NCBI RefSeq assembly: GCF_056746865.1
Contig: NZ_CM163382.1
DNA: 64,000 nt
Strand: one strand, 5' to 3'
The translations under genes were made by a program, and so were the position numbers. Under the pieces are notes generated by a model. It was not told the origin of the DNA and ran no database searches. It saw nothing but the letters and a program-made list of their open reading frames with translations. Shown piece by piece: positions 34,821 through 63,644 of the stretch; the stretch's first letter is position 1, and each line of letters starts with the position of its first letter.

Positions 34821-35194
34821 TGTTTCGCCCCCGGATGTTTACCCAAGGTAATGTTATTTACCGTTCTGTAATTGTCGCGGGCCATCAGGCCGGTTGCCCG
34901 GCGGGCCCGGAGGATATCAATACTGTTTATTAACTGAGAACGGGTACAGGCGCTGAATCCCGGCTGGTCGGTACGTACCAGTGCGTATTTTTCAACGAGA
35001 AAGTTCACCGCATCGCACAGTGAAATGCCTGCCTCAATATGCTGCTCAATCACACGTTCATCAGCGAACGGTGTGTCATTCAGTGTGAGGCCGTAATGCT
35101 GGTCCAACAGTCGGGTGAGCAGTGTCTGCCAGATGGTGACGGGAGACGGGCAGCGCGATGCCTCCCGTACGTGTGTGTCAGGTAATGTTTTCAT
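34817..35194 (-). CDS. cbtA: CbtA-family toxin (cytoskeleton-binding toxin, YeeV/YkfI/YpjF family)
   Basis: Translation from MKTLP… is near-identical over most of its length to recalled YeeV; start set at ATG 35194 with GAGG RBS rather than the longer upstream ORF start. Confidence 0.85.
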   Translation of the reverse strand: MKTLPDTHVREASRCPSPVTIWQTLLTRLLDQHYGLTLNDTPFADERVIEQHIEAGISLCDAVNFLVEKYALVRTDQPGFSACTRSQLINSIDILRARRATGLMARDNYRTVNNITLGKHPGAKQ

Positions 35195-40955: not shown

Positions 40956-42086
40956 ATGACCGGACGTAAAAACAAATGTGTCAGAAAAAATTGTAACAAT
41001 CAGGTTTTCTCAGTAAAAATGGCAGTGGAGAAAAGACTGTGCAGAAAACATTATGAGAGGTTTTGTGAGCTCAAAAAAAGAAGAGAGCAAAATCCTGTTC
41101 ACAGATTAAATGAAGCATTGCCAAGAAAGATAAAAGGACCAAAAAGTAAGAAAAAATTAGTAAAAGAAAGAGAAATCATTAACAGCAGAAAAAAACATAA
41201 ACAGGAGCAGGGACCATCGCTGACTGAACTTAATAAAAAAGTTCGTGAGATACTGAAAACTCCTGCATGGAGAACGCTGGAAACGAGAATTCGAAGAAAC
41301 GGAATCACATTTAAGTCAAAAGCAGAGTTAGATGCGCTTTCTGAACTTTATGCAATTTATTCATGGGTTTCATATTGCAAACGGGGCGATAATTATTCTG
41401 TGTGGTTTTTGAATTGTCCGGATGTAAATATAAACCTTCATGTGTGCGAATGCCGGTCTTCTGAAAGCGATTGTTATCTGCCATCTCGTTTTATTATTCT
41501 TCCAGCTCCATTAAGGCAAAAAGTAAAAAGAAAATACTCGGCTAATTCGTCTGGGGTACCAGGACATAATGATTCAAAAAGTCTTTATAAGACAGTTTTG
41601 TCTGTTTGTGGTGGGAAAAGAGAAACCGAATTGTTCTTTTATTCACTGCCAGTAAAGACTAATCATCATCCTTACTGGATTAAAAGTGGTGTGGTTAAAA
41701 GATTTCCTCCTGTTTTTGGTTTGTTGTTTTATGAACAGGAAAGATTAACAGGAGGTGTTTTTCGTTATGTGTTGATAAGGTTTTATAATACTTTTAAGGA
41801 GAATTTGTTTTTTGTTGAGATTGTCTCGTGCTGTTTTCTTGTTGAGCTTTTTCATGATATTGATTCGTTTTTTATAAATCAACGATTAAGTAAGCTGGAA
41901 AGTTTTATAGATAAGTGGAGGGAGGGTAAAGAAATCTGGATAAAAGCATATCTACAACTGATACATAATACATTGGGAATAACTGAAACAGAAAAACTCG
42001 TCAATCTATATAATTCATTTTTTACTGATAAAGTGGTTATCTGGGATGAATCAGTAAAAAAAGTTAAGTGGATTTATGAGAAATAG
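40956..42086 (+). CDS. Orphan hypothetical protein in AT-rich cargo locus (Lys/Arg- and Cys-rich N-terminus, aromatic-rich C-terminal half)
   Basis: 376-aa ORF with GGAG-like RBS (ggagatgagagg) before ATG; markedly AT-rich codon usage compared with flanking genes; no family recognised. Confidence 0.6.
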   Translation: MTGRKNKCVRKNCNNQVFSVKMAVEKRLCRKHYERFCELKKRREQNPVHRLNEALPRKIKGPKSKKKLVKEREIINSRKKHKQEQGPSLTELNKKVREILKTPAWRTLETRIRRNGITFKSKAELDALSELYAIYSWVSYCKRGDNYSVWFLNCPDVNINLHVCECRSSESDCYLPSRFIILPAPLRQKVKRKYSANSSGVPGHNDSKSLYKTVLSVCGGKRETELFFYSLPVKTNHHPYWIKSGVVKRFPPVFGLLFYEQERLTGGVFRYVLIRFYNTFKENLFFVEIVSCCFLVELFHDIDSFFINQRLSKLESFIDKWREGKEIWIKAYLQLIHNTLGITETEKLVNLYNSFFTDKVVIWDESVKKVKWIYEK

Positions 42087-42629
42087 TACCATTTAACTGA
42101 AAGCCACCATAACGTCTTTTTGACTACATCCATGATAATGAGTCTCATTTTGATTTCGTTTTTTTTGTTTCGGGAAATTTTCCGAACATCAGTGATAATG
42201 AGGGTTTTGTTGTTTTTGTTTCTGCAATGTTTGAGGGCTGTTCCTGGAGATGATTCGTTGCTTGTGAGCAAGAGGTGGTCCGCTTTACTGGACAAGTTTT
42301 GCATTTGTTGAGTGGTGAAATGGAAGTAAAAAGAGCCCCTTTCTGGCAATGACTGAAAAAGTCAGTAGCGTGTGACAGTAAAAACTAACATAAAGTGATT
42401 ATCGTATGATTATGACAATGACTTATAACTTTTATGAAAAGAACAACAGAAACTATGAAACCATAGCAGATTCCTGAGACCATGTTTTCTGAGGTAGAGA
42501 AAATAATTCAAGAGTAAACCAGTTTGTTTTTTGGTCAGTAAAGAACCATGCCTGATGTGAAAACGGGTAATCAACATTCAGTCTGCATGAATGTCTGAGA
42601 ATGTTGCTAATGTCGGTATGATACTATAT

Positions 42630-42725
42630 ACACGTATTTTACTAAGTATTTTTACTAAGCATTTCAGTAAGTGTTTTACCAGACATACACGTGTTTTCAT
42701 AAACAGCCCTATAAGTGTTTTCATT
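42630..42725. repeat. Cluster of degenerate ~12-bp direct repeats (iteron-like) in AT-rich intergenic region
   Basis: Motif (A/T)(C/A)TAAG(T/C)(A/G)TTTT / ACACGT(A/G)TTTT recurs at about 42634, 42646, 42659, 42671, 42691 and 42715, first four with ~12-bp spacing. Confidence 0.5.
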
Positions 42726-43601
42726 AAGCATTGCTGTACACATTGCTTTGTCTGAAACACATCCAGTTTAGTAAATCTTTACGTTAGCTAAAATCAGTTT
42801 AAAGCTGCTGTAAAACCTTTCTGTTTAAGCAATCAATCTGCTATTCGATTTTACTGATGTTGCGTTTAACCTTTTCTGAGTTTTTGTGTTTTTAGTCGTT
42901 AACCTGAGACAAGTGTCTTTACGTAAAAACGCAAATCCGACTGAGATAACCTGGTGTGATTTACGGTGTGCTTGCGACGATTTTGTTAAATGGTTCTATG
43001 GATGATTTTGTGACGATGAGATTGATGAGATGATTAACTGGCCCTGGTGTTTTTTCTCAGTGCAAGGTGATTATCTTCATCATAAGGCTCTTTTCAGAAA
43101 AAGCGTGATGATTGGTTCTGGTGTTTTGATTCAGATGAGATTTACGTTATCGATGGTTAATCGTTTTTATGGTGTGTTGAAAAGTAACGTTTTCACGATA
43201 AGAAAATCGATTCTGATATTGGTGAACTTTGTTCTTGTGGCAGGGTTATCTGTAAACAGGTTTTAAGTGCGCTATTCGGCTCTGTGATTGAGTTGTGTGG
43301 TTAAGCTGTAGGTTTTGGTGTTGTTGTTGATTTACAGCGCCAGAAAGCGTTCTGATTGCGTTTTTGATGTTTTGTTTGCACGTTCTGTTGATCCGTTTCC
43401 CTTCAGGCTTTGTAGTTTTTAAAAACCATTTATGCCGTTGTTGTGTGTTTTATCCTGCGTGTAGGTTTATCTTTTCTTCGTGGGGGATTCATTCTGTTTT
43501 AATCAGGAGCCATTGGCGTTGCTCAATGGCGGGATGCCGTAAAGTTTTACCGCAGTGATTAATGATGTGAAGTCAATCCAAATCAACGGAGATCTCTCAT
43601 C

Positions 43602-44333
43602 ATGAATCAACCAATACACAATGCTTACTGGTTATCCCGTTTTGAAAGTATTCTCAACAGTGCCCTGGCGCAACACCGTGCCGTCTCGTTAATCCGGGTG
43701 GATTTACGTTTCCCTGAGTATATGCCTGCCACCATCATGGATACCGATTTAGATTCAGCGGTGATTTCTCGTTTTTTTGCATCCCTGAAAGCAAAAATTC
43801 AGGCTTACCAGCGACATAAACGACGTGCCAACAAGCGTGTGCGTGCAACCACTCTGCGTTATTTCTGGTGTCGGGAGTTTGGCAAGGAAAAAGGCAGGAA
43901 ACATTATCACGTGATATTACTGCTCAACAAAGATACCTGGTGCTCGCCAGGGGATTTCACCGTTCCTTCTTCGCTGGCGACACTGATCAAGCTGGCATGG
44001 TGTAGTGCTCTGCATCTTGAGCCCTGGCAGGGTAATGGACTGGTTCATTTTTCCAGGCGGACGCCTTTCCGTAAACCGACATCATCTGATGCTCGCCCTT
44101 CTTCCGATGATACGCCTTTGTCGGGTGGATGTTCTGATACCAGGAAGGCTTCAGACAAAAAGCCGGGTGAAGCCGCTGTTCTCTGGATCAAGCGTGGTGA
44201 TGTGGAAGCGCTGCAGAAAGCCCGGAACAGAGCCAGTTATCTCGTGAAATATGAGACGAAGCAGCATGACGGTTCCGGGCAACGTAATTATGGTTGCAGT
44301 CGTGGGCCGGGGCGTCTGCTGGATGGCAGGTGA
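43602..44333 (+). CDS. Inovirus Gp2-like / YagK-YfjJ family protein with HUH-type and YxxKYxxK motifs
   Basis: 243-aa ORF; contains HYHVILLL (HUH-like) and SYLVKYETK (rolling-circle Rep motif-3-like). Confidence 0.7.
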   Translation: MNQPIHNAYWLSRFESILNSALAQHRAVSLIRVDLRFPEYMPATIMDTDLDSAVISRFFASLKAKIQAYQRHKRRANKRVRATTLRYFWCREFGKEKGRKHYHVILLLNKDTWCSPGDFTVPSSLATLIKLAWCSALHLEPWQGNGLVHFSRRTPFRKPTSSDARPSSDDTPLSGGCSDTRKASDKKPGEAAVLWIKRGDVEALQKARNRASYLVKYETKQHDGSGQRNYGCSRGPGRLLDGR

Positions 44334-44689
44334 GCCCTGTAAAACGACATCCGGTGTCTGAGCTTATGCTACAGGACGTTGGCTGACGCCCTTAGCTCGT
44401 TTTCTGAAAAAGTCGTCCTGAAGTCATGCAACGGTATTTTTCTCTGCTTTCGCTCCTGGAAACACTCCGTCGGTAAAACCTTACTGTCCTGCTTAATGAT
44501 GTGAACCGAAGTCAACGGAGAGCATTCATTCTGAACCTGCATCCGGTGTTCTGTCCCTTGTCGGTTACCTGATCTTCCCGTTCTGCCGCGGTTTTTCACT
44601 TATTCCATCAACCCCATACGCAAGCCATAACACGTCAGCGCATCCACGGGCAGGACGCGTTGTGGGCTGCGTATAACGGAACATATCTT

Positions 44690-45262
44690 ATGAATGCTAT
44701 CCCTTATTTCGACTATAGCATGGCGCCCTTCTGGCCATCTTATCAGAACAAAATCATCGGCGTTCTCAACCGTGTGTTGCGCGAGCAGTCCTGCTCCCGA
44801 ATACGGCGGATCCTGCTTCGTCTGCCGGGGGAACATGGCAACATCTTCAGCGACAGAAAAACCTGGTTCGGTATGGCCTTTATCGAAACCGTCAGTGCGC
44901 TGATGAATGCAACACCCGGACGCGACCTCTGCTGGCTCCTGACACGTCATCCTGAAAAACCGGAATACCACGTGGTGCTGTGCGTCAGACAGGAATATTT
45001 CGACGGCCCTGAGCTGGACCGGTTGATTCTGGATGCCTGGAGCAACGTACTGGGCTTCGCGTCACCGGGTGAAGCAGCACCGTACCAGAAACAGATAACC
45101 CGGGATGTGGTGCTGGACAGTTGTTCACCGGACTGCGAAGAGAGACTCAAAGAGCTGATATGGGCGTTCAGTGATTTCGCCCGCGATCGTCGTGGTGTGC
45201 GCGATCCGGAAGCCCGTTACCTCGCCGGTAATCCCTGGTATCCCGTAGCAGGCCAGCTCTGA
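44690..45262 (+). CDS. Divergent Gp2-like paralog (hypothetical)
   Basis: ORF 44660..45262 (TTG-initiated in track); ATG at 44690 gives MNAIPYFD…; shares N-terminal R-h-x-L-R-x-P-x-E motif with 43602..44333 but lacks clear HUH and Tyr motifs. Confidence 0.5.
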   Translation: MNAIPYFDYSMAPFWPSYQNKIIGVLNRVLREQSCSRIRRILLRLPGEHGNIFSDRKTWFGMAFIETVSALMNATPGRDLCWLLTRHPEKPEYHVVLCVRQEYFDGPELDRLILDAWSNVLGFASPGEAAPYQKQITRDVVLDSCSPDCEERLKELIWAFSDFARDRRGVRDPEARYLAGNPWYPVAGQL

Positions 45263-45330
45263 AAGCTCAGCTCAGCAGATTCACCCGCATTTGCCCAACA
45301 TTCATAAATCTCACAGAGGACATTCTGACC

Positions 45331-45567
45331 ATGTTGACCTCAATGACAGGTCACGACAGCGTATTGCTGCGTGCCGACGATCCCCTGATCGACATGAACT
45401 ACATCACCAGCTTCACTGGTATGACCGACAAATGGTTTTACAAGCTGATCAGTGAAGGCCATTTCCCTAAACCCATCAAACTGGGGCGCAGCAGCCGCTG
45501 GTACAAAAGTGAAGTGGAGCAGTGGATGCAGCAACGAATCGAGGCATCACGAGGGGCAGCAGCATGA
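45331..45567 (+). CDS. alpA: AlpA-family phage regulatory protein (HTH)
   Basis: 78-aa ORF with AlpA-like core (…ITSFTGMTDKWFYKLISEGHFPKPIKLGRSSRWYKSEVEQWMQQR…). Confidence 0.8.
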   Translation: MLTSMTGHDSVLLRADDPLIDMNYITSFTGMTDKWFYKLISEGHFPKPIKLGRSSRWYKSEVEQWMQQRIEASRGAAA

Positions 45568-45767
45568 AACGTGTTGTAATGCCGGTACGCTGGCAATGTG
45601 CAAAATACCAGCGTTGGTATTGTGGAAATCAGCCCTGTCCCTGGTGCTGGCGACCTGCTGCCCCCGTCTGTCATTCCTCGTTCTTCGCTGTAACAGGCAT
45701 CGTACCGGTCTCGGCGTGCTTTCCTGCGTACCGACACCGGTTCAGCAACATTCAAGGGGATCAAATC

Positions 45768-46304
45768 GTGCAAATAACCGAAACCGTACTTTCAGAGCCG
45801 GTGGAAATCCGGCGTTTTATTCAGCAGGCGGTGGATCACTGGCCGCGTCTGCTGGCCGTCCACTTCACACTCCATTCGGCAGAAGGAAACATCAACGGAC
45901 AACAGATTCATGCATTCTGTACTTCCTTTTATGAACGTATTACTGAGCGTAATCACACGACCAGTCCATCATCGCCGGTGGTATTACGCTGGTTGCGGGA
46001 ACAACATGGAGGAGCAACAATGCGATGCCTGTTGCTGCTCAGCCAGACGAGTATTTGTCACCCGCGAGCCAGTGTCACAGTTGATGAACAATGTTCGCAA
46101 GTGGTGGATTTACTGCAGCAGACCTGGCGGGGGATGGATACGGGCGGACAATGTCGGGTGGAAAGGTGTTTTCAGGCTGCCCGGGGTGATACATCCGGCC
46201 AGTATATTGCGTTAAAAACAGTTGCATTGTCTCTGGGGTTACCGGTTGTGACCGGTATTACCCATCGCCCGGTACAGCGCTGTACATTGATTACAGCTCA
46301 GTGA
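45768..46304 (+). CDS. Hypothetical protein, possible third Gp2-like paralog
   Basis: In-frame part of ORF 45522..46304; GTG at 45768 preceded by AAGGGGA RBS; alternative ATG start at 45564 overlaps alpA stop (ATGA). Confidence 0.45.
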   Translation: MQITETVLSEPVEIRRFIQQAVDHWPRLLAVHFTLHSAEGNINGQQIHAFCTSFYERITERNHTTSPSSPVVLRWLREQHGGATMRCLLLLSQTSICHPRASVTVDEQCSQVVDLLQQTWRGMDTGGQCRVERCFQAARGDTSGQYIALKTVALSLGLPVVTGITHRPVQRCTLITAQ

Positions 46305-46321
46305 ACAGCGCTGTTGTGCAG

Positions 46322-46833
46322 TCAACGAGGTTTTCTGTCTTTTCGTCGGTCATTCAGCATCATTAAACGGGTCTCTGCCTCTTTCTGTTCCTGTGGTGTC
46401 ACTTCCCCGCACGGCTGACCGTTCAGGTTGTAACGGGCGCCACCTGCTATTAACGCACGGTAATAGCGCGGAGACTGCACATAAGACGCCACTGCTGCAT
46501 GTAATGTACCAGCGCCAAACGCCAGTTCTCGGATGGCGATATCCTGTATCAGGTCGTCAGGTATCCCCACTTTAAGTGGTTTTGTTTTTTTCCCGGTTGA
46601 ATGACTCAGGCCAGAGTTCCACAAGACGAATAATGCGCTTACGGTTTTTGCTCTGGCGTTTTGTCATGTCGCCACGGTGTTTTATCAGCAGGTTTCTGTT
46701 TATCGTTCAACTGTGGTATCTGGTCACCGGCCTTCATTTTGTATGCTGTGTCCGTTTTATCCTGCAGCGGCGTTGCCGGTGATTTACTGAAAATACCCTG
46801 CGGTTTACGGTTAATGGTCAGAGTTACCATCAA
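46322..46833 (-). pseudogene. Two consecutive ORFs (64 aa and 100 aa) in different frames, possibly one disrupted gene
   Basis: ORFs 46639..46833 and 46322..46624 on the same strand separated by 14 bp with a frame change; no family recognised. Confidence 0.3.
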
Positions 46834-47188
46834 TTTTGTTACCTCGCGCTGTCAATGGAAGTAGTACCTCATCCGATATCTGAAAATGTTTTCCGGTGGA
46901 TGTTACAGCGAATTTCATGTAAGACATGTTGTTGTCGGTATTGTTCAGTACTGTGCGTTGTGAGCGTATTCGTTATCAGACAGAGGGGCAGGGAACAAAT
47001 GGCGTAAACGGACATCTCAGTGCCTGAGAAACAGTACAGGTCAGGCCATCATGGCCTGCAAACAGAGCCCTGGCGACCCCGTGGCCGAAAACGAAACAAT
47101 AACCCGCGCGCAGTGCGAGGAATCCGGATGTGAAGCAATCAGCAGGTAATATTAATGGCAGGACCAGCAGGTTCTTTAAACAAACGAA

Positions 47189-47951
47189 GGTGGTGACTCC
47201 AATTAGTAGAACATATATTTTTCGATAAAGGCACCGATGACTTTTTCATGAAGTTCTACAGAGCGCGAGAAACAGATAGTTCTGCGGGCCAGACGTTTGA
47301 TTCGGGTTCTCAGAGGTAGATGTTGCGCTCAATGCGCTGAGTAAAAATCTTACCAGTCAGATGCTTCTCCTTCGGTAACTCTCTGGTGTAACTACCCCAT
47401 TCGTCAGTGGTCAACATACCGATGGTAAAAGGGCAAGCAGCGCCAGCAATTCACGACAGGTTTAATCAGTCCGTAGGCCAAAAGTGTAGGCCAGAACGCC
47501 ACCAGTTTTCGTGTTGTACGTGTACCAGAGCCAGTGCTGTCGCGCTTTACTGCCGACAAAACTCCATTGCTCATCAAGTTCGCAGATGAGTGCCATATCA
47601 GCATGAGCGACCGGGTATGACGTTATTCTTCGTGGCGAGAGTTTTTTAAAGTCCGGATGACAGTATTAATGCCGATTTTCAGCGTACGGGCAGTATCGCG
47701 AACTCCGGCACCGTTGAAAGCCATTTCAGTGATTTGCTCTTTAACTCCCGGTTTACGGGCCTCGTAACGGTAAGTGAGCTGAAGCACTCGATGACAGTCA
47801 CGGCAGCGAAATCGATCATGTCCTTTGGGTTCTTCCCGTGACGGTAAACCTGAACGGACTGGCAACAGGAGCAATGAAGGTTAACTGTGACCATGAAAGA
47901 ACCTTAAAAGTGGCTATTATACTCCTAATTCAACTAATTGGAGTCATTACC
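47189..47951 (-). mobile_element. IS1-family insertion sequence (divergent isoform), insB apparently degenerate
   Basis: Terminal inverted repeats ggtggtgactccaatt (47189-47204) and ggtaatgactccaatt (rc of 47936-47951); length 763 bp; insA intact; conserved TTAAAAAAC frameshift motif at insA end; InsB-like translation needs at least two further frame changes. Confidence 0.75.
47623..47874 (-). CDS. insA: IS1-family InsA (zinc-finger/HTH transposition regulator)
   Basis: 83-aa ORF with CxxC…CxxC zinc finger and C-terminal HTH resembling IS1 InsA (…GINTVIRTLKNS…). Confidence 0.8.
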   Translation of the reverse strand: MLLLPVRSGLPSREEPKGHDRFRCRDCHRVLQLTYRYEARKPGVKEQITEMAFNGAGVRDTARTLKIGINTVIRTLKNSRHEE

Positions 47952-49329
47952 GTATTCATAATGGATTAGGTTCAGCAGTTGCTGAAGTGCTTGTAGAAAC
48001 TTGTCCTGTGCCCATGCGTCGGGTGGGGGTTAAAGAGCGGTATGGCCAGGTTGAAACTCAGGACTTTTTACAGAGAGAGTACGGGTTAACCGCGCAAGCT
48101 ATTGTGGCGGCAGCCAGAGAGCTATTGTAATTCATGGAGTTTGTTTACCATTCTGTTTTTCTTAAAAGTGAGTGTCTGTGCGGTCACTAAACTCGGTAAT
48201 AAAGCAGTTCATTGCAGGATAAGAAGCGTTTGGTTGTGTCGTTTTACCGTAAGAACCGACCGCCGTATGTATCCATTAAGCCAGTATTGGTAACGTAGGT
48301 GCCCACCTTTTCAAACTGGTGGGCGCCTGTTATGGAGCAAAAACATTATCCGCAGAACCCCGCAGATCATTTTCAAATGAGTTAAACTTCAAATGGTTAA
48401 ACTGGCTTTGCAACCAGGAGCCTCTGTTGCCCGTATTGCCCGGGAACACGATATCAATGATAACCTCCTGTTCAAATGGCTCAGACTCTGGCAGAACGTA
48501 AGGTAAAGGGAGATGAAAAAGGCAATAGCAGAACTGAGTGACAGTGAAACCATTCTGGCGTACAGGGTTGGATGGTGAAACTGATAAAAAAACCCTCTGA
48601 AAATTCTGTCAGAGGGTGTAGTCAAAAATGGTAGATATTTACGATGCAGTAATGCTTTCACTCCGGTAATTAATTTCCGTGATTAACTGCTTTCGATCAA
48701 TAAAGGAATTGCAAAAGTGTGATCTTGTTCACGACATCGTGGATGATAATATGCCTGATGTCTGAATCCGGAAACAGTGCTCTGGCGGGTTTCATGTGAA
48801 GTTGACGGATAAAAAATCCGCACGACCAGACAGACGTGCGGTTTACGAAATTCGTAACAAGAGGCTTTTCTACGGATCACGTGGTGCGTGCCACGTGAAA
48901 TTTTTGTAGCGCAAAATGTGCAATGTGTAAATACAAGGAAGGAAAAAAGTTAAATTGGTAGAAGTCCATGCCTGCCACATGTACGTCTGCATTCCTCGTT
49001 TTGAACAGAATTCTCACCAGACATCGTGAATTTCTCATTCAATCATCAGAGATATTAACCAGGATTTTTATTGTTTTGTGATATCAGCAGTGCAGGTATA
49101 CAGACGTTAAAGTAATCAGGTTTATTATAACCACCTTTACAAAGTTGTATATGTTTATAATTTAATGATTTTAATGCCAGTCGTTTTCTGCTGCTTAAAT
49201 TGAGGTCGCATATTATACACAATAATATTCTTAGCATTATTAAATTAATAAGAGAGGATTCTTATCACTGTATTTTTGCTCCGCACTACCGTTCTGGCTG
49301 GTGAAGTAATAATACAGGAGAATAACAGA

Positions 49330-50871
49330 ATGCTTAAAAGACGTGATGCTTTTTTAAAGAAAAGCGCGCTGGCAGTGAGTGTGGCCCTGCTGCTCTCGGC
49401 TCAGGCTCAGGCTGTTTTGACAGGGCCTGTTGATGGTAATTCTTCCAGCTTACTGATTGGAGAAAACTCTTTTATTACGAATTTAACTGGTACAGTTAAT
49501 AACACTTTCCTTTTGGGAGGTGGCGCTTTTAACCTGGATTCACCAGGAAGTCTTCAGTTTGGCTCTTTTTCGGAAGTGTATAATTCTCCACACAGTGTCA
49601 CCCTGGGAAGGGATGCCGGTCAGGCTGAGTCAAAATATGGTGTTGCCATAGGTAAGAGCGCTGAGGTATTTAATTCACAGCATAGTGTTGCTATTGGGGG
49701 ATGGGCTGGAATAGAAAATTCTTCAGGCTCTGTAGCTCTGGGCCATGGCTCACAGGTGTCGGGAGAAAATAACGTGGTATCTGTTGGTGCCGGGCCTGAG
49801 GGATATGGAAAGAGTGTCAAAGGAGCACCGGAAACCCGCCGGATTATAAATGTGTCTGATGGTATCAATAACACAGATGCAGCGACGGTAGGGCAACTGA
49901 ATGAACGATTTGATGATGCACAGGTCTTTTTGTTGCAGACGAATGAAAGAATTGACGAGACAGATAAACGTCTTTCAACAGTTCATGCTGAACTCAGCAG
50001 GGATATTATTGCAGGCACATCGGCAGCGGTGACGTATACAGATGTAACAGCGCTTGCACTTCAGGATGAGATAAAGGATGGGACGAACAAAGTACGTGAT
50101 GAGTTGAAATCACAGGGAGACAGTCTGCGTGGTGAGATAGGCGGTGTATACAGAGATGCCCGTGCTCATACTGACAGTCAGGTCACAGCAGTACGTGATG
50201 AACTGAAGGCAGAGGGAGACAGTCTGCGCGGTGAGATAGGCGGTGTATACAGAGATGCCCGTGCTCATACTGACAGTCAGGTCACAGCAGTACGTGATGA
50301 ACTCAGCAGGGATATTATTGCAGGCACATCGGCAGCGGTGGCGTATACGGATGCATCTTCTCTTGCTCTTCAGGATGAAATAAAAGAAAAAGCGGATGAA
50401 ACAGTTCAGGTTTCCCGGGCTTATACAGATAAAAGTGTACGGGATGCCCGTAAAGAAGCGAAAAGCCAGGCAGAACATCTCAGCGATGTGCTTGTGAAGA
50501 ACAGGGCGCAGACGGATGCAGCAATAGCCTCAAATACAGCAGCGATAAGGAATAACAGTCATCGTCTGGATTTGACGGAAGCCTGGCAGAAGATGGCGAC
50601 AGAGAGAATGAATAATATGCAGGAGCAGATTAAAGAGAACCGGAAGGAGTTAAGGGAGAGTGCAGCCCAGAGCGCGGCACTGGCCGGTCTTTTCCAGCCA
50701 TACAGTGTTGGAAAATTTAACGCGACAGCAGCCGTTGGTGGTTACCGTGATGAGCAGGCCATTGCGGTGGGCGTGGGCTACCGTTTCACAGAGAATGTGG
50801 CAGGAAAAGTTGCAGTTGCTGCAGGTGGGTCATCCGCATCGTGGAATGCTGGTGTGAATTTTGAGTTCTGA
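49330..50871 (+). CDS. Trimeric autotransporter adhesin (YadA-like C-terminal anchor) with repeat-containing coiled-coil stalk
   Basis: ORF 49276..50871 trimmed to [28 protein letters not shown] (signal peptide); YadA-type head repeats (SVAIG/ VSVGAG), coiled-coil stalk, C-terminal beta-barrel anchor ending …AGVNFEF. Confidence 0.8.
50115..50312 (+). repeat. Tandem 99-bp (33-aa) direct duplication inside the adhesin stalk
   Basis: Units beginning gggagacagtctgcg at 50115 and 50214, encoding [30 protein letters not shown] twice; flanked by a second, more distant repeat pair ([12 protein letters not shown]…LALQDEIK). Confidence 0.8.
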
Positions 50872-50909
50872 CAGGTCAGGATTTAGATATCTGTCCCGGG
50901 GGGAGTCCC

Positions 50910-52248
50910 CATAAGCGCTAACTTAAGGGTTGTGGTATTACGCCTGATATGATTTAACGTGCCGATGAATTACTCTCACGATAACTGGTCAGCAATTCTG
51001 GCCCATATTGGTAAGCCCGAAGAACTGGATACTTCGGCACGTAATGCCGGGGCTCTAACCCGCCGCCGCGAAATTCGTGATGCTGCAACTCTGCTACGTC
51101 TGGGGCTGGCTTACGGCCCCGGGGGGATGTCATTACGTGAAGTCACTGCATGGGCTCAGCTCCATGACGTTGCAACATTATCTGACGTGGCTCTCCTGAA
51201 GCGGCTGCGGAATGCCGCCGACTGGTTTGGCATACTTGCCGCACAAACACTTGCTGTACGCGCCGCAGTTACGGGTTGTACAAGCGGAAAGAGATTGCGT
51301 CTTGTCGATGGAACAGCAATCAGTGCGCCCGGGGGCGGCAGCGCTGAATGGCGACTACATATGGGATATGATCCTCATACCTGTCAGTTCACTGATTTTG
51401 AGCTAACCGACAGCAGAGACGCTGAACGGCTGGACCGATTTGCGCAAACGGCAGACGAGATACGCATTGCTGACCGGGGATTCGGTTCGCGTCCCGAATG
51501 TATCCGCTCACTTGCTTTTGGAGAAGCTGATTATATCGTCCGGGTTCACTGGCGAGGATTGCGCTGGTTAACTGCAGAAGGAATGCGCTTTGACATGATG
51601 GGTTTTCTGCGCGGGCTGGATTGCGGTAAGAACGGTGAAACCACTGTAATGATAGGCAATTCAGGTAATAAAAAAGCCGGAGCTCCTTTTCCGGCACGTC
51701 TCATTGCCGTATCACTTCCTCCCGAAAAAGCATTAATCAGTAAAACCCGACTGCTCAGCGAGAATCGTCGAAAAGGACGAGTAGTTCAGGCGGAAACGCT
51801 GGAAGCAGCGGGCCATGTGCTATTGCTAACATCATTACCGGAAGATGAATATTCAGCAGAGCAAGTGGCTGATTGTTACCGTCTGCGATGGCAAATTGAA
51901 CTGGCTTTTAAGCGGCTCAAAAGTTTGCTGCACCTGGATGCTTTGCGTGCAAAGGAACCTGAACTCGCGAAAGCGTGGATATTTGCTAATCTACTCGCCG
52001 CATTTTTAATTGACGACATAATCCAGCCATCGCTGGATTTCCCCCCCAGAAGTGCCGGATCCGAAAAGAAGAACTAACTCGTTGTGGAGAATAACAAAAA
52101 TGGTCATCTGGAGCTTACAGGTGGCCATTCGTGGGACAGTATCCCTGACAGCCTACAAAACGCAATTGAAGAACGCGAGGCATCGTCTTAACGAGGCACC
52201 GAGGCGTCGCATTCTTCAGATGGTTCAACCCTTAAGTTAGCGCTTATG
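50910..52248 (+). mobile_element. IS186 (IS4 family), apparently intact, with ~10-bp target site duplication
   Basis: Termini CATAAGCGCTAACTTAAGGG (50910-) and inverted copy ending 52248; flanking direct repeat ggggagtccc at 50900-50909 and 52249-52258 within a GC-rich palindrome. Confidence 0.9.
50959..52077 (+). CDS. IS186 transposase
   Basis: 372-aa ORF MPMNYSHDNWSAILAHIGKPEELDTSARNAG… matching recalled IS186 transposase. Confidence 0.9.
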   Translation: MPMNYSHDNWSAILAHIGKPEELDTSARNAGALTRRREIRDAATLLRLGLAYGPGGMSLREVTAWAQLHDVATLSDVALLKRLRNAADWFGILAAQTLAVRAAVTGCTSGKRLRLVDGTAISAPGGGSAEWRLHMGYDPHTCQFTDFELTDSRDAERLDRFAQTADEIRIADRGFGSRPECIRSLAFGEADYIVRVHWRGLRWLTAEGMRFDMMGFLRGLDCGKNGETTVMIGNSGNKKAGAPFPARLIAVSLPPEKALISKTRLLSENRRKGRVVQAETLEAAGHVLLLTSLPEDEYSAEQVADCYRLRWQIELAFKRLKSLLHLDALRAKEPELAKAWIFANLLAAFLIDDIIQPSLDFPPRSAGSEKKN

Positions 52249-52281
52249 GGGGAGTCCCCCGGGATATAATGAGGTACAGAG

Positions 52282-52737
52282 ATGCTGGATATAATCCTGG
52301 CGACGAGAGATATTTATTTTGAAAAAGCCCTGCGAGAGGTATTTGGAACCGTAAGCAGTCGAATCAGATATATAGAAGATGCCATATCAGACAGAAGAAG
52401 GGTGCAGTCAGGCAGGTCATTCAGATATTATTTTGTATTCTGTGATGATGAGTATACAGATATTGTTCGTATTCTTTTTACCGGAGAGGCCTGCTGTATT
52501 CTGAATAAGTCGATGCTGAATCTGAGAGCGGCCGGAGGTGTGTTGACGCTGGAAGAGCGCAGAGCGGTACTGAACCGGTATTACAGAGGTTTAAGTATTG
52601 CGGAGATTACAGAAGAGACGGGGCAGAATGACAAGACGGTATACGGTCATCTTCGTCGTGCACTGCAGCGGTCTGGATTCCGGAAGGGGCGTTTTATAAA
52701 GGGGAGAGAAGCGGCGGGGGATTCAGGTGTTGAATAA
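52282..52737 (+). CDS. Putative transcriptional regulator with C-terminal LuxR/sigma-70 region-4-like HTH
   Basis: 151-aa ORF; C-terminal LTLEERRAVLNRYYRGLSIAEITEETGQNDKTVYGHLRRALQR; GAGG-like RBS (gaggtacagagATG). Confidence 0.6.
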   Translation: MLDIILATRDIYFEKALREVFGTVSSRIRYIEDAISDRRRVQSGRSFRYYFVFCDDEYTDIVRILFTGEACCILNKSMLNLRAAGGVLTLEERRAVLNRYYRGLSIAEITEETGQNDKTVYGHLRRALQRSGFRKGRFIKGREAAGDSGVE

Positions 52738-53053
52738 TGTATCTTATATTGTGATATCGGTGCTGCTGCTGTTATTTTTTGTTGTATTTGTGACGAATGG
52801 TTAAGAATAAAACATGAGTTGGTGATTATCAGGACAGGTTGCTTGTATATGAAGATAACAAAGGCGGCATTTATTTTTGCGCTGTCAGTGTGGAGTGTTG
52901 CTGTGATATGTCTTTTATTATTTGTACTGGTTGTTCTGGGATAGCCATAGTGAAATAAAAAGCTGTCTGAATTAAATTATTTTGAACACATATTTTAATT
53001 CTGCACTAAATTCAGAATGACCCTGTAAATAATTCTGTGTAACTGCCGCCGTA

Positions 53054-54261
53054 TTAAAGGTGCTCGCTAAGGCGGTCACCGAACTCGATAATAAAACGGC
53101 TCATTGCCAGCCGCCAGTTCTGGATTGGCATACTCCATTTTTTGACGCCGACTGTATCGCCAGATAAATCACTTTTCGCACCGAGTCGTCCGTTGGGAAC
53201 ACCTTGCGCTTCTTTATCGCCTGCCGAATGACACTGTTCAGCGATTCGATGGCATTCGTCGTGTAGATGGCCTTGCGGATATCCGGTGGGTAACCGAAGA
53301 AGGTGTTGAGATTTTCCCAGTGTGTGCGCCAGCTCTTGCTGATTTGCGGGTATTTTTCATCCCAGACGCCTGCAAACTTATCCAACGCCATCAACGCCGT
53401 TTCCTCTGTCGGGGCCTGATATACCGCTTTCAGCCCGCTGGTGACGGCTTTGTAATCCTTCCACGACACGAATTTCAGGCTGTTGCGCACCATATGGATG
53501 ATGCAGAGCTGAATATGCGTCTGCGGGTACACGCTATTTATCGCTTCCGGGAAGCCTTTCAGGCCGTCCACGAAGGCGATAAGGATATCGTTCAGGCCGC
53601 GATTTTTCAGTTCCGTCAGTACATTCAGCCAGAACTTTGCACCTTCATTTTCGGCCAGCCACATATCCAGCAGCTCTTTCTGACCGTCGGTATTGATGCC
53701 CAGCGCGAGGAACACCGCTTTGTTAATGACACTCCCGCTGTGACGAACCTTAACCACAATACAGTCAAGATAAACAATGGGATACAGTGCATCCAACGGT
53801 CGGTTTTGCCATTCAGAGACCTGTTCTTTAACCGCATCGGTCACTTTGGATATCAGCGTGGGCGAGACATCGGCGTCGTACATTTCTTTGAAGGCTGAGG
53901 TAATTTCGCGGGTAGTCATCCCTCTGGCATACAGCGCCAGGATCTGGTTGTCCATGCCGGTAATGCGGGTCTGATTTTTCTTCACCAGTTGTGGTTCGAA
54001 GGTATTTTCACGGTCACGCGGCGTGTTAAGTTCGATCTCGCCATCATCGCACAATACCGTTTTTGACGAGTAGCCATTACGGGTATTAGAGCCTGATTTA
54101 GGAGCATTTTTCTCATGACCTAGATGGTCAGTCAGTTCTGCATTGAGCGCCGTTTCGACGGTAAGCTTTGTCAACATGCGTGAAAACTGGTTGAGGTCGG
54201 CTTCGGTTTTAAGGCCTTTGGCCAGTTCAGCCGCAAGGACTTTAAGTTTCTTTTCGTCCAT
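53054..54261 (-). pseudogene. IS256-family transposase, frameshifted near C-terminus
   Basis: ORF 53101..54261 matches IS256/mutator-type transposase; conserved C-terminal tail KKWSMPIQNWRLAMSRFIIEFGDRL is in another frame after a T/A homopolymer near 53117-53127. Confidence 0.8.
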
Positions 54262-54429
54262 CGTTTGCCTGTCTCCGTTGTTGGAGTGAACATATCAAAA
54301 ACAGGCAATTACACAATTTTAATTACAGTCTCTTCAGAATGGGTAATCAGTGACCGTCCTGACGGTCACTTTAAAGAAAATGCATATTACACAGAATGGT
54401 AAACAGGCTCAACATAGAGCTTGAAGGTA

Positions 54430-55058
54430 GTTGTTGCCTTGTAATAAAATGTGTGATTCATAGACATCGTTTCAATTTTCTCAGTTCAAGTTCAGGCTTG
54501 TAATTCTGTTCCTGTATATGCTCTTCATTGGGCTGATAGTTTGCATGAACGGCATCGGAGTATGGTGTTTTCTCAGCAAGTTCAAAGTAGCGTTCCATCG
54601 GAGTTTTACCGTTGTGAGCGCTATGAGGACGTTCCCTGTTATAGTAATGCTACCATTCTGCTAGCAATCCCTTCAGGTCATCAGCAGAAAGATCTACGGT
54701 AGCGTAAAACTCAGCTTTGTCTGTCTTTTGGGAACGTCCAACCTTTATTACATCAGGCGACAACTACCTTGAAAAACGCCGTTACTCACCGATCCCCTTC
54801 ACGGTAATACGCACTATTGCCAGTGAGATTGAATGAAGTCGTTTTAACTCGCTTTGAATACGTCTTGCACCCAGATTTCGCTGAGAACGTAACTTCCAGA
54901 ATCAGAGCGACTTCGCAAGTGCTGGTTTTCGTTGATGGTGAACGCTTGGAGCGACGGCTGTAGCTTTCCAGACCAGCGATGCCCTGAGCCAGATATCTGC
55001 GCCACCATTTACACAATGTGGGCCGAGAAGTGCCACAGTGACGGCATACAAATGTCAA
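54430..55058 (-). pseudogene. IS481/IS3-superfamily transposase remnant (N-terminal HTH fragment and C-terminal integrase-core fragment)
   Basis: 54786..55058 encodes …RPTLCKWWRRYLAQGIAGLESYSRRSKRSP… (HTH); 54430..54660 encodes …YYNRERPHSAHNGKTPMERY… (DDE core tail); internal deletion and in-frame stop. Confidence 0.5.
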
Positions 55059-55101
55059 CGACGGATGAAAAGTGGCTCTTACGCAACCTGGATGGAGATT
55101 T

Positions 55102-56119
55102 TCATGCCAGTGGACTCATGACCCTCTGCCTGAGTAGTTCAAATCCGGCTCGACCATACATCTGGCCTTTCAGCATTTTTAGTCGATTTACATGACTTTC
55201 GACAACCCCCATTATTCCAGCGACTGCTGATTGCCTCACATATAGCCGCAGCATCAGCTGCCATCCTTGCAGCCACGCGCCGAAGTTACCACTTTCTCGT
55301 TGCTCTTTTAACCACTCCCTCCATGGGGCCAGAAGTCCTCGCTCTGGAGGCCGGGTTGACATTTCAGGGAATGTTCCTGAACACACCCAGAGACTGACTG
55401 TCACACGTGATAAGCCTGTAATACGGGATATTTCCCCTGAACCCACATCCCTTGTTATGTAGTGCCATAACCTCTGTCCAACGCTGATGCCGTTTTTGGC
55501 GGGTTTGCTGTTTAAGGCGTTCCGGACGACGGAGCGATGCTACAGGCACAGACAGTACTGGCTTAGGTGATTTCTTTGGTGACAACCCACTGGCAACAAG
55601 ACGTATCAGAGGCATCTGTCTGTACATCATTCGTTCAGGCGCATCGCCAATATTTTTTAGCAGGTGCCATCGATCAGCTATCTGTCTGGCCTGAGGTGCA
55701 CCTTCACGTGCTGCTGTCGCATAGACTCCGCCACGGTCACGTGAGACAACCTGTATTTCCGGATATTTTCTGAACCAGGTCGCCAGCGTACTCTGATCGC
55801 AACCGGGAAGCAGGACGAGGGGACGGTGAGTATCAAGATTGACGATTAACGTGCCGTAATGGTGGCCCCGATGCCACGCCCACTCATCAATACCGACATG
55901 AGGCGCGCCCGACTGTTTCGTCTCCGGGGTATTAATAACCCTGCGAAGAAGAGTATCAGCACTGCAACGTAGCCCCACTGCCGTTGCTGCCTGTTTCCCG
56001 GCCTCACCTCCGGCTATTAATCCCGGTTGACGTTGTAAATTTTGTAACGCCTGTGAATACTGCTGATGTGAACTGTGAAGGGAGGCTGAGACTCGGCAAA
56101 ATTTTTCGTTAACAGGCAA
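55102..56119 (-). pseudogene. ISL3-family transposase, N-terminally truncated and frameshifted
   Basis: ORFs 55364..56119 and 55102..55446 in different frames; motifs DRWHLLKNIGDA and C-terminal VNRLKMLKGQMYGRAGFELLRQRV typical of ISL3 family. Confidence 0.6.
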
Positions 56120-56545
56120 GGGTTATGGCAGCACCAGAGTAAGATGCGTCTGGGCTGAGCAGGGTAAGTGCTGTATCTGGAGGCGATGGCATCTATGAAC
56201 TGAGTAGCTGTGCTTAAGGTATTCAACACATAGTGCTGTTTTGCATTTTCCGGGGAGATGGAGGGTTATATACCGTCAGAGCTAATAACTTCTTGACCGT
56301 ATTGCCATCAGCAAAGTAACCGTAGAAATCTCTTAAGTGAGTGTATTAAGTTACCCATAACTTAAAACGGCTTCACTGGTAAGCCTCATACATTTTCTTT
56401 CACTCAAGTTGTGGAAGCCCTCTTTCGTCGAACCGTTCGTTATAAATGCAAAAGATGTATGCTGACCCTCTCAAAGCCGAAATCATACAGAGTTTATGGA
56501 AAAGTGGTGAACCAGTCGCGTCGAAAGTAGATTGAGCTCATATCA

Positions 56546-57739
56546 TTACTTGCTTTTGCAGCAGCGCCAGATAAATACAGTCACCATGCTAAATAATACA
56601 GCGGCAAATAATGCCATCACAATCAGTGCTATTGCGACACCTGTTTTCGACACCAATGGTACCAACAACGCGCAAAGCCCATAGCCAAGTGTGTGACTGC
56701 AAGCGAGCCAGCCCGCGCCTGCGCCGTCGGCCAGCTTATCATTCAGTAAAAGTTGATAAGCGGGGGTTGCCAGAGCAGCTCCAAATGACAGCACTGCACA
56801 GCCTAGGTAAAACAACCATAGCTGTTCAGCGAGCATGATAGCCAGACCACTACTCATCAACACCCCGGCACTCAGGAGCAGAGCCACTGGAGTCAGGCGC
56901 TGTGGACGGAGTACCACGAACTGCGCGATAAGCGCAGCTATTGCGGACAGCCCCAACAACCACGCTACCTGTTGGCTAATAGTGGTGGTATCAGTGGCGA
57001 ACTGGCGAGTAAGGGCTGGAGAAAGTCCAAGCTGCATCATGCTCATTGCCGCAGCCAGTAACATTGCGCAAAGCAGATAAGGCAGGAAATCCCGCTTCAG
57101 GCTGACGCTCTTGCGCTCCGGTGTGGGCTGTGGTGGTGTGCCGGGCAACCGCAGAAGCATCACCAGTGCCAGCGCTGGCGCTGCCATCAGCATCCACACT
57201 GGCGCCAGAGGGTGAATGACCAACATTGCCGCCGCGCACAGCGGCCCGAATAGCCTGCCGCAGCTCAGGCCGGAGCTGATGGTTGCCAGAGCGGCCATGC
57301 GATTCCCATCTCCCGCTCTCTGCAATGCCCAGACCTGACAGGCTGGCACCATTGCTGACACGGTCAGACCGTAGACGATCCGGGCGATGATTAATATTCC
57401 CAACCCCACCGCTTTTGTTACGGCACCGGTAGCCATCAGCACGCTTCCCAGCCCAAGCAGGGTAAAGCTTACGCCATATCCTCCCAGAGCCCACAGCACC
57501 ACAGTCTTACTGCCAGTAAGGGAAATTTGCTTTCCCCACCATGGGGAAGATGGCAGAAACAGCATTGAGCCCAGCATCAGCAGGGCAGCCCATACAGACA
57601 GACTCAGATTTGTCTGTATGACCAGAACAGGGAGTACAACCAGCAGACCGTTCTGTCCGATACCGAGAAGACCGGCACTGAACGCCAGTGGCCAGCAGGA
57701 CAGGGTTTTTTGGGGCGTATCTTCGATCTTAGATGACAT
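56546..57739 (-). CDS. shiF: MFS transporter ShiF (aerobactin-locus associated)
   Basis: 397-aa 12-TM ORF divergent from iucA, as in aerobactin islands. Confidence 0.85.
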   Translation of the reverse strand: MSSKIEDTPQKTLSCWPLAFSAGLLGIGQNGLLVVLPVLVIQTNLSLSVWAALLMLGSMLFLPSSPWWGKQISLTGSKTVVLWALGGYGVSFTLLGLGSVLMATGAVTKAVGLGILIIARIVYGLTVSAMVPACQVWALQRAGDGNRMAALATISSGLSCGRLFGPLCAAAMLVIHPLAPVWMLMAAPALALVMLLRLPGTPPQPTPERKSVSLKRDFLPYLLCAMLLAAAMSMMQLGLSPALTRQFATDTTTISQQVAWLLGLSAIAALIAQFVVLRPQRLTPVALLLSAGVLMSSGLAIMLAEQLWLFYLGCAVLSFGAALATPAYQLLLNDKLADGAGAGWLACSHTLGYGLCALLVPLVSKTGVAIALIVMALFAAVLFSMVTVFIWRCCKSK

Positions 57740-57813
57740 TGTAATGTTTCAACACCATGTATTAATTGTGTTTATTTGTAAAATTAATTTTTCTGACAAT
57801 AACATTTCTCATT

Positions 57814-57832
57814 GATAATGATAATCATTATT
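57814..57832 (+). promoter_or_regulatory. Fur box in aerobactin promoter
   Basis: gataatgataatcattatt matches Fur consensus GATAATGATAATCATTATC at 18 of 19 positions; 40 bp upstream of iucA start. Confidence 0.8.
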
Positions 57833-57874
57833 GACATAATTGTTATTATTTTACTGTGTAGGAGCTGTTTGATT

Positions 57875-59599: not shown

Positions 59600-60547
59600 A
59601 TGTCTGGGGCAAACATTGTTCACAGCGGATATGGACTGCGCTGTGAAAAACTCGACAAGCCTCTGAATCTTGGCTGGGGGCTGGACAATAGCGCGGTGTT
59701 GCACTGGCCCGGGGAGCTGCCAACAGGATGGCTGTGCGACGCGCTGGATCAGATATTTATCGCCGCACCACAACTTTCAGCAGTGGTTCTTCCCTGGTCC
59801 GAATGGTGTGAGGAGCCACAGGCGCTGACGCTTTTCGGACAGGTACAAAGCGACATTATCCATCGTTCCGCTTTCTGGCAGTTACCGTTATGGCTGAGTT
59901 CTCCGGCAAACCGGGCCTCCGGTGAAATGGTTTTTGATGCAGAGCGTGAGATTTATTTCCCGCAGCGCCCCCCCCGTCCGCAGGGTGAAGTTTATCGTCG
60001 TTACGATCCACGCATTCGCAGGATGCTGAGTTTCCGCATTGCCGATCCCGTTTCTGATGCAGAACGTTTCACTCGCTGGATGAACGATCCGCGCGTTGAG
60101 TATTTCTGGGAGCAAAGTGGCTCACTGGAGGTACAGATCGCCTATCTGGAACGCCAGCTCACCAGTAAACATGCATTCCCGCTGATTGGTTGTTTCGACG
60201 ATCGGCCGTTCAGTTATTTCGAAATCTACTGGGCGGCGGAAGACCGCATTGGTCGCCACTATTCGTGGCAGCCCTTTGACCGTGGCCTGCATCTGCTGGT
60301 TGGTGAACAGCAATGGCGCGGAGCCCACTATGTGCAAAGCTGGCTGCGCGGGGTGACACATTACCTGCTGCTGAATGAGCCACGTACGCAGCGCACAGTA
60401 CTGGAGCCACGCACCGATAACCAGCGCCTGTTCCGCCATCTTGAGCCTGCGGGATACCGGACAATTAAAGAGTTCGACTTCCCACATAAACGCTCGCGCA
60501 TGGTGATGGCGGATCGTCATCACTTCTTCACGGAGGTCGGTCTGTAA
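59600..60547 (+). CDS. iucB: N6-hydroxylysine acetyltransferase IucB
   Basis: 315-aa ORF in operon position 2. Confidence 0.93.
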   Translation: MSGANIVHSGYGLRCEKLDKPLNLGWGLDNSAVLHWPGELPTGWLCDALDQIFIAAPQLSAVVLPWSEWCEEPQALTLFGQVQSDIIHRSAFWQLPLWLSSPANRASGEMVFDAEREIYFPQRPPRPQGEVYRRYDPRIRRMLSFRIADPVSDAERFTRWMNDPRVEYFWEQSGSLEVQIAYLERQLTSKHAFPLIGCFDDRPFSYFEIYWAAEDRIGRHYSWQPFDRGLHLLVGEQQWRGAHYVQSWLRGVTHYLLLNEPRTQRTVLEPRTDNQRLFRHLEPAGYRTIKEFDFPHKRSRMVMADRHHFFTEVGL

Positions 60548-63563: not shown

Positions 63564-63644
63564 GGAAAACGCAGCCGGAGGCTGCTTCTTTAACTCGCTA
63601 CACAGCATCTTTGGGCTGATTTTTTCCGCCCGTGTGGAGGAATA

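Follow-up and report, generated by a model that had tools for sequence, protein, structure and literature searches.

The question raised by this locus is why one leader sequence stands twice in the 64,000-nt stretch of contig NZ_CM163382.1 (assembly GCF_056746865.1; hereafter the window), upstream of two neighbouring Gp2-like genes that we call gene 1 and gene 2, when only the first copy runs into a start codon. A sequence-only reading of this DNA had proposed that gene and leader were duplicated together, that the second copy then decayed or was re-purposed, and that the leader might be a regulatory RNA element or an operator. We find two homologous copies of a cassette of about 70 bp, of which the second, far from decaying, is conserved more strongly than any other part of the locus. 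The explanation we favour, although we stop just short of giving it an even chance, is that the repeat is a DNA-level promoter/operator cassette that would co-regulate gene 1 and the unit made of gene 2, an alpA-like gene and a fourth gene. The features on which the argument turns are the following.

43537-43552, plus strand: palindrome box of copy 1, CCGTAAAG/TTTTACCG, an imperfect 16-bp dyad present in all copy-1 variants.
43559-43592, plus strand: core of copy 1, made up of TTAATGATGTGAA (43559-43571), a middle part (43572-43582) and TCAACGGAGA (43583-43592).
43602-44333, plus strand: gene 1, encoding a 243-amino-acid (aa) YagK/YfjJ protein ('inovirus Gp2 family') according to RefSeq annotation and Pfam.
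44471-44486, plus strand: palindrome box of copy 2, CGGTAAAA/CCTTACTG, which in most islands reads CGGTAAAA/ACTTACCG.
44493-44527, plus strand: core block of copy 2, TTAATGATGTGAAC-C-GAAGTCAACGGAGA-G-CATTC, near-invariant across islands.
44531-44533, plus strand: pseudo-start CTG, aligned with the gene 1 ATG and at the same 9-nt spacing from GGAGA.
44534-44689, plus strand: non-coding, indel-rich leader of gene 2, 147-184 nt long across variants.
44690-45262, plus strand: gene 2, 190 aa, by profile comparison a divergent YagK/YfjJ paralog.

Copy 1 lies where it had been placed before, with TTAATGATGTGAA at 43559-43571, TCAACGGAGA at 43583-43592 and a further 9 nt to the ATG of gene 1 at 43602. 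Copy 2 exists as well, but its true site is shifted rightwards by about 10 nt from the range first given for it, with cTTAATGATGTGAAccgaagTCAACGGAGAg at 44492-44522. Within the window the exact 13-mer occurs at these two sites only, the pair of TTAATGATGTGAA and TCAACGGAGA is found at 43559-43592 and 44493-44521 and at no other site, and the composite TTAATGATGTGAA-N(0-12)-TCAACGGAGA appears twice versus 0.00 times expected from 100 shuffles. When the two leaders are aligned, the similarity reaches beyond the short motif noted earlier: the stretch 43538-43608 is homologous to 44472-44537 over about 71 nt, in which about 75% of positions are identical and a single 5-nt indel occurs. Copy 1 is detected at E=1.4e-12 by a profile of 17 copy-2 variants (nhmmer), and a profile of both copy families finds the same two sites of the window and no others (E=1e-21 to 1e-23; next best 0.6). 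That the homology continues into the coding sequence of gene 1 was suggested by an alignment by eye (about 51% over 57 nt, with an ATCAACC..ATAC box) but rejected, as nhmmer lent no support; in a diagonal count of 11-mers in the coding region, off-diagonal matches stayed within the range of shuffled sequence.

Both copies are built alike: an imperfect palindrome of 16 bp is followed, after a spacer of 6 bp, by TTAATGATGTGAA...TCAACGGAGA. The middle part of copy 1 (43572-43582) measures 11 nt and includes 5 nt more than that of copy 2, and the TCAACGGAGA of copy 1 carries the Shine-Dalgarno sequence GGAGA of gene 1. In copy 2 the central 4 nt of the palindrome vary while the half-sites are mostly retained, always 6 bp from the 13-mer. 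The sequence of this spacer is free, yet its length is constant in the 26+36 variant contexts, though the leader downstream is rich in indels. One other GGTAA-N-TTACC dyad occurs in the window, GGTAATGTTATTTACC at 34847-34862, within the second of two CP4-44-like gene sets, against about 0.2 expected by chance.

How the second copy has fared was followed in 17 independent island variants, gathered by similarity to the whole intergenic region. Only 2 of the 35 sites of the copy 2 block (44493-44527) vary among them, compared with 93 of 147 in the leader downstream (Fisher p=1.3e-10) and 79 of 182 third codon positions of gene 2 (p=6e-6); pi is 0.008-0.03 within the block versus 0.1-0.26 in its flanks. 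Because it has far fewer variable sites than either the downstream leader or the third positions of gene 2, copy 2 shows itself, as far as sequence comparison can tell, to be functional and under strong purifying selection. Since none of the variants carries a start codon at the aligned position, translation initiation there is not the source of this constraint. The proposal that the second copy is decaying is contradicted by these counts, and it does not fit the downstream gene either: gene 2 is intact, has its own Shine-Dalgarno sequence and ATG, and is constrained at the protein level, with a mean column identity of 91% and with 19%, 12% and 43% of sites variable at codon positions 1, 2 and 3. 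The region of its ATG is also highly conserved (pi 0.02).

In mosaic islands each copy proves to be linked to its own downstream gene. The copy 2 block is retained in two islands in which the leader downstream of it has been replaced (L007 and L008), and also where gene 1 is a 188-aa variant lacking copy 1 (L003-L006 and others); conversely, copy 1 stays with gene 1 in islands that have no gene 2 (L025-L028). In copy 1 conservation extends from the palindrome as far as the ATG, and the sequence further upstream is strongly diverged. In one island of the last group (L027:1486-1542) an IS1 ends just inside the 13-mer (…CCAATGATGTGAAG…), so that the palindrome is gone, as are the opening bases of the 13-mer, while gene 1 is intact; this island amounts to a naturally occurring 'deletion mutant' for the cassette's upstream half.

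It was correctly noticed before that the start codon is replaced in copy 2, where CTG stands in the place of the gene 1 ATG. Among 52 distinct leaders, taken from complete genomes and from metagenomes, 37 have CTG as the aligned codon, 11 TTA, 3 CTT and 1 CAG, and none has ATG, GTG or TTG. In the frame of the CTG at 44531, a TGA follows after 13 codons, and the frame is open and in phase with gene 2 in only 16 of the 52; the rest lose it through 1-nt indels, through a 12-nt polymorphism or through a wholly different leader, which we call type B (L007 and L008). The 12-nt polymorphism is an indel, GTCGGTTACCTG at 44556-44567, present in the window and in L003, missing from many islands and carrying the in-frame TGA. 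The annotated ATG of gene 2 at 44690 lies 159 nt past the pseudo-start, the earliest possible start of its open reading frame is a TTG at 44660, and every gene caller and every full-length family protein in the databases begins with MNAIPYFDYS. The comparison of leaders thus shows the stretch between copy 2 and the gene 2 ATG to be non-coding throughout its 147-184 nt, and with no ATG in any of the 52 aligned positions, copy 2 does not look like gene 2's own lost start. An upstream open reading frame or N-terminal extension from the CTG had at first been entertained, the frame being apparently open in 4 of the first 7 loci, but was given up when it proved out of frame or stopped in 36 of the 52.

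Two smaller features of this leader are recorded here. A TTAT-NN-CATCAAC box (44600-44612 in the window; L007:2770-2790) is common to the two otherwise unrelated types of gene 2 leader; in type B it contains TCACATCA, an exact 8-nt complement of the motif's TGATGTGA, and in type A the complement is imperfect. Since the motif is invariant, covariation of the box with it is impossible. In addition, the type B leader (L007:2719-2877; L008:3101-3250, minus strand) has an annotated small open reading frame of about 50 aa on the opposite strand, which ends about 30 nt from the motif.

What kind of site is then being conserved? Leaders of replication-initiator genes can carry hairpins that repress translation by masking the Shine-Dalgarno sequence and the AUG, and copy 1 does contain a candidate.

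43556-43609, plus strand: inverted repeat specific to copy 1, predicted to fold as RNA into a 19-bp hairpin in which the 13-mer region is paired to the Shine-Dalgarno sequence and AUG of gene 1.

This predicted fold (-16.5 kcal/mol, z=-3.2) was equalled in stability by none of 200 shuffles, and in this it resembles the known hairpins. Unlike them, it is not conserved in copy 2, where most of its pairs are broken and no stable local fold is found (z +0.3 to +0.7); none of its 19 pairs is changed on both sides, and natural substitutions in the copy 1 stem mostly disrupt the pairing. A structure common to both copies was likewise not found, RNAalifold giving -1.5 kcal/mol with 0 of 12 predicted pairs compensatory, and Rfam 15 has no match in the cassette region, its sole match in the window being STnc630. 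In the longer gene 2 leader, a hairpin at 44616-44674 and a pairing of 44514-44529 with the gene 2 start were tried and rejected: the 255-nt leader reaches z=-1.8 only, there are no compensatory changes, and a C/T x G/A pair of polymorphisms sits at independence; neither of the two sequence types of this leader shows real covariation.

One might still propose an RNA element that acts through its primary sequence, either as a protein or ribosome site (a Shine-Dalgarno sequence close to the 5' end with a standby or stabilising role) or as the target of a base-pairing RNA, with the copy 1 hairpin repressing translation of gene 1 in addition. Such an element would account for the sequestering of GGAGA and AUG in copy 1, for the GGAGA that the invariant block of copy 2 retains without a start codon after it, for the long contiguous invariance, which is typical of base-pairing targets, and for the sense orientation of both cassettes relative to their genes. 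However, the lack of compensatory changes, of a consensus structure, of an Rfam family and of covariation all speak against it, as does the lack of a predicted antisense promoter or terminator, and we consider it doubtful. What both copies do have in common is primary sequence, a fixed geometry, a dyad with a variable centre and a long invariant block, and the dyad of the putative operator stands at the identical distance of 6 bp in each. Judged by these comparisons, the shared features appear to suit a DNA site bound by a protein better than a structured RNA. Of the two roles suggested for the leader at the outset, the regulatory RNA gains no support as a shared structure, with zero compensatory pairs, while a regulatory role as such is likely and the operator is the form we favour.

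In the promoter/operator cassette that we propose, a palindrome of ideal form CGGTAAAA.TTTTACCG would be followed by the 6-bp spacer of fixed length and by the block TTAATGATGTGAA...(A/G)TCAACGGAGATC, and one sequence-specific DNA-binding protein would bind both copies and could so control the two transcription units jointly. Its gene probably lies within the four-gene module itself and would be either one of the Gp2-like genes or the third gene, whose product we regard as a candidate cassette binder; the third gene and the one that closes the module are these:

45331-45567, plus strand: AlpA/excisionase-type helix-turn-helix protein of 78 aa (PF05930, E=2e-10; PHROG 'excisionase and transcriptional regulator').
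45768-46304, plus strand: gene 4, 178 aa with a GTG start, last gene of the conserved four-gene module.

The promoter would be a weak, factor-dependent one, its -35 and spacer region covered by the palindrome. Within the 13-mer there is a -10-like AATGAT with no -35 to match it, the palindrome occupying the position of the -35 and spacer; if transcription started about 7 nt after AATGAT, the centre of the palindrome would fall at about -28. As to its origin, copy 2 is probably a gene-1-type leader that was copied, with ribosome site and first codons, to a place upstream of gene 2, after which the ATG would have been lost (it is now CTG) while selection kept the control sequence and gene 2 used its own start 159 nt downstream. 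Only in copy 1 might transcripts that cover the whole cassette also fold the hairpin and so hide the ribosome site and AUG of gene 1.

That gene 2 needs a promoter of its own is suggested by the stretch between the two units.

44374-44405, plus strand: remnant of a terminator-like hairpin followed by a T-rich tail, its loop inverted and one stem position mismatched in the window.

In two related islands (L002 and L007) this terminator-like hairpin is intact, an 8-bp GC-rich stem followed by CGTTTTCT. Because such a hairpin stands between gene 1 and copy 2 there, we suspect that gene 2 has its own promoter in an interval whose most conserved part is copy 2. A terminator scan of the window did not call the remnant. 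The intact form (L002:2540-2575, and likewise in L007) reads AAGGGCGT-CAGCCA-ACGCCCTT with its T-rich tail; in the window the loop and inner stem are inverted (GGACGTTGGCTGACGCC) with one mismatch, the pattern expected of template switching within a hairpin.

Promoter/operator repeats placed before co-regulated genes, such as autoregulated rep or regulatory genes, are familiar from plasmids, phages and islands. The present cassette resembles them in that its dyad box keeps a constant distance from a core immediately before the gene, that two copies precede two units of one module, and that it travels with the downstream gene in mosaic islands. It is unlike them in having no recognisable -35/-10 pair, in the unusual length of its block and in the ribosome-site-like sequence of copy 2 without a start codon. 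Several points weigh against our interpretation. A consensus scan for sigma-70 promoters, with -35 and -10 hexamers 16-18 bp apart, found no 9/12 site in either upstream region, and the best relaxed match, GTAAAA-16-AATGAT, reaches 7/12. Thirty-five near-invariant bases are long for a simple operator, the conservation of a Shine-Dalgarno-like GGAGA in copy 2 is not obviously explained by a DNA operator, and the 5-bp indel between the core halves alters their helical phasing between the copies. The 188-aa variant of gene 1, a third Gp2-like kind, offers a weak lead, as the copy 2 palindrome recurs upstream of it with 13 of 14 positions matching on the opposite strand; this would be a property of a DNA site, since DNA sites work in either orientation. 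The alignment of the upstream region as a whole is marginal, its score being reached by 12 of 500 shuffles. A full third copy at this place was rejected, as nhmmer reported nothing at E<=10 and the pairwise score did not exceed that of shuffles; only the 14-nt palindrome and a 10-nt core match are left over.

Gp2-like proteins bring a further possibility to mind. The double-strand origins and oriT sites of HUH endonucleases combine an inverted repeat with an adjoining conserved nick region alongside a rep or relaxase gene, and the cassette, with palindrome, short spacer and invariant block next to Rep-related genes, could be an origin, nick or binding site cognate to the proteins encoded here; the likeness is to the general layout of known origins. 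Gene 1 is indeed a member of the YagK/YfjJ family (PF11726, E=2.9e-36, 125.4 bits against a cut-off of 25.8) and also matches PF23343, REP_ORF2-G2P (E=3.4e-10), with weak PHROG matches to replication-initiation families. It has H-Y-H in KHYHVILLL and Y-x-x-K in YLVKYETK, and H101, H103, Y213 and K216 are invariant in five family members; by motif resemblance these residues may have the catalytic roles of HUH-type motifs. A search for solved relatives found none. K-12 yagJ, of equal length and behind an IS1, was considered as a relative of gene 1 and discarded as unrelated.

Gene 2 is a more distant case. It matches no Pfam family even at E<=10, and so fails PF11726's own membership test, and it matches no NCBIfam or PHROG entry; BLASTP against gene 1 gives E=0.03 only. 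However, hhalign aligns its family with five YagK/YfjJ proteins at 95.5% probability (E=1.5e-8, 139 columns), and an intermediate protein (P0077) scores E=2.4e-18 with the gene 2 profile and itself 41.8 bits on PF11726. On account of this profile match and this intermediate, gene 2 is, on the evidence of sequence, a very divergent paralog within the YagK/YfjJ superfamily, and the assignment of both downstream genes as Gp2-like is borne out, for gene 2 only by way of profile-profile comparison and the intermediate relative. Where gene 1 has HYHVI, gene 2 has EYHVVLCV, having lost the first His of H-x-H, and an Asp is aligned with the Tyr of Y-x-x-K; to judge from these residues it looks like a catalytically inactive derivative of a Rep-like family. 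A word-indexed protein search returned 62 members of the gene 2 family, all displayed source names being E. coli, and an exhaustive search of 1.8 billion representatives added two full-length relatives, P0077 and P0082, so the family is nearly confined to E. coli.

With these proteins in view, a HUH site gains from the replication-initiator matches and the H-Y-H and Y-x-x-K motifs of gene 1, from an inverted repeat, short spacer and conserved block of about 35 nt lying directly beside the genes, and from a conservation that is independent of coding or start codon. It loses by palindrome arms that are short, weak and AT-rich (5-6 bp), unlike those of known origins, by an adjacent protein, gene 2, without catalytic residues, by the fact that these islands are not known to replicate by rolling circle, and by the absence of the motif at other YagK/YfjJ loci, in K-12 and in distant relatives. 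We think it quite unlikely. The more specific form, in which the cassette is acted on by the Rep-like Gp2 proteins and gene 2 is a catalytically dead paralog kept as a site-specific binder or regulator, seems to us improbable in the same measure. If it were true, CP4-type islands of E. coli would possess a module for replication or mobilisation of the rolling-circle type, along with two sites cognate to it, which could explain how 'cryptic' islands are maintained or packaged after excision.

Could copy 2 instead be a functionless relic, left by recent partial duplication or gene conversion of the gene 1 leader and drifting neutrally? The end of the similarity a few bases past the start codon, the loss of the ATG and the restriction of the element to closely related E. 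coli islands would suit a relic, but across those 17 islands copy 2 varies far less than either its flanks or the synonymous sites of gene 2, and it is kept both where the downstream leader was replaced and in islands without copy 1, so that we hold a neutral history to be very improbable. Lastly, continued initiation at copy 2, whether of a short upstream reading frame or of an N-terminal extension of gene 2 from the CTG or a neighbouring non-ATG codon, is close to refuted: the GGAGA-CTG spacing is as in copy 1 and 16 of 52 leaders are open and in phase, but the other 36 are out of frame or contain stops, the codon is TTA, CTT or CAG in 15, the three bases before it vary freely, and the extension appears in no gene caller and no database protein.

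The proposed promoter/operator cassette, to return to it, is also limited in its distribution. The exact motif was found in one contig among 100,044 species representatives and in 5 E. coli plasmids. A search of phages returned no copy of the cassette and one weak match, inside gene 1 only. Metagenomes hold the motif at least 144 times in 120 stretches, at least 72 times for each copy type, and among the matches listed it stands in the two known contexts only. That the motif might be a general feature of yagK/yfjJ homologs did not hold, as the regions upstream of K-12 yfjJ, K-12 yagK and distant relatives lack it; by these searches it is confined to E. coli-type islands. At one distant locus (L015) genes of both kinds are adjacent, 46 nt apart, without the motif. 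From this locus, gene comparison makes the pairing of gene 1 and gene 2 old and the cassette specific to the E. coli lineage.

The module resembles the alpA-yfjI-yfjJ arrangement of CP4-57 in pairing YagK/YfjJ genes with an AlpA-type gene; the cassette, present upstream here and not at K-12 yfjJ or yagK, would mark one E. coli sub-lineage of it. An antiterminator site of the kind used by AlpA in Pseudomonas was considered and set aside, as the 78-aa excisionase-type protein is not comparable: the Pseudomonas protein is a larger, Q-like one acting with a GGGACG element between -35 and -10 (PMC9371919). In full-text literature searches with motif strings and family names, neither the element nor a function of the proteins was found described; one preprint counts Gp2-like genes, together with alpA and radC, among the core genes of a class of Pseudomonas islands. 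The cassette is real and undescribed, and it is of an ordinary kind, a conserved regulatory box common to two paralogs being ordinary in itself. Its interest lies more in where it stands. About a third to half of complete E. coli genomes contain the module of Gp2-like gene, Gp2-like paralog, AlpA-type regulator and gene 4, often at several places, and the cassette would be the module's first defined cis-element, with a 35-nt block more constrained than neighbouring coding sequence. It may offer a handle on what YagK/YfjJ and AlpA-type proteins bind and on how genes near excision functions are switched on.

Module-like sequences were found in 2,724 of 5,426 complete E. coli genomes, at a median of two places per genome, and the gene order is identical in every related island retrieved. 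Some orthologs of gene 4 are named 'YagK/YfjJ domain-containing' in RefSeq (for example in L003); gene 4 of the window has no Pfam match. Its stretches LLAVHFTLH and MRCLLLLSQ are reminiscent of the YagK/YfjJ family, and it has a 12-nt deletion relative to its counterpart in strain B1. A frameshifted gene for a ProQ/FinO-domain protein (46322-46830, minus strand), intact in L006 and L007, converges on the module, so that an RNA chaperone gene adjoins the conserved leader. Upstream of gene 1, about 1.6 kb of T-rich DNA (41960-43600) has no annotated gene in near-identical genomes, and only its last ~70 nt, the cassette, are well conserved among islands.

The window as a whole is E. coli chromosomal DNA belonging to a composite, mosaic genomic island. 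Positions 43300-45600 are 100% identical to strain B1 and other strains; in strain B1 the module lies in the tRNA-Phe island beside cadC, with floR, sul2 and ISCR2. No tRNA gene lies within the window. Positions 46300-64000, with YadA-like and aerobactin genes, are 99.9% identical to strain PK8276. Upstream of the module are capsule genes and two CP4-44-like gene sets (cbtA/cbeA, radC, antirestriction, DUF932 and a YeeP-like GTPase). In or near the capsule/ABC-transporter region, at 1731-1896, lies the match to STnc630, an enterobacterial small RNA, with 181 bits against a gathering score of 55.

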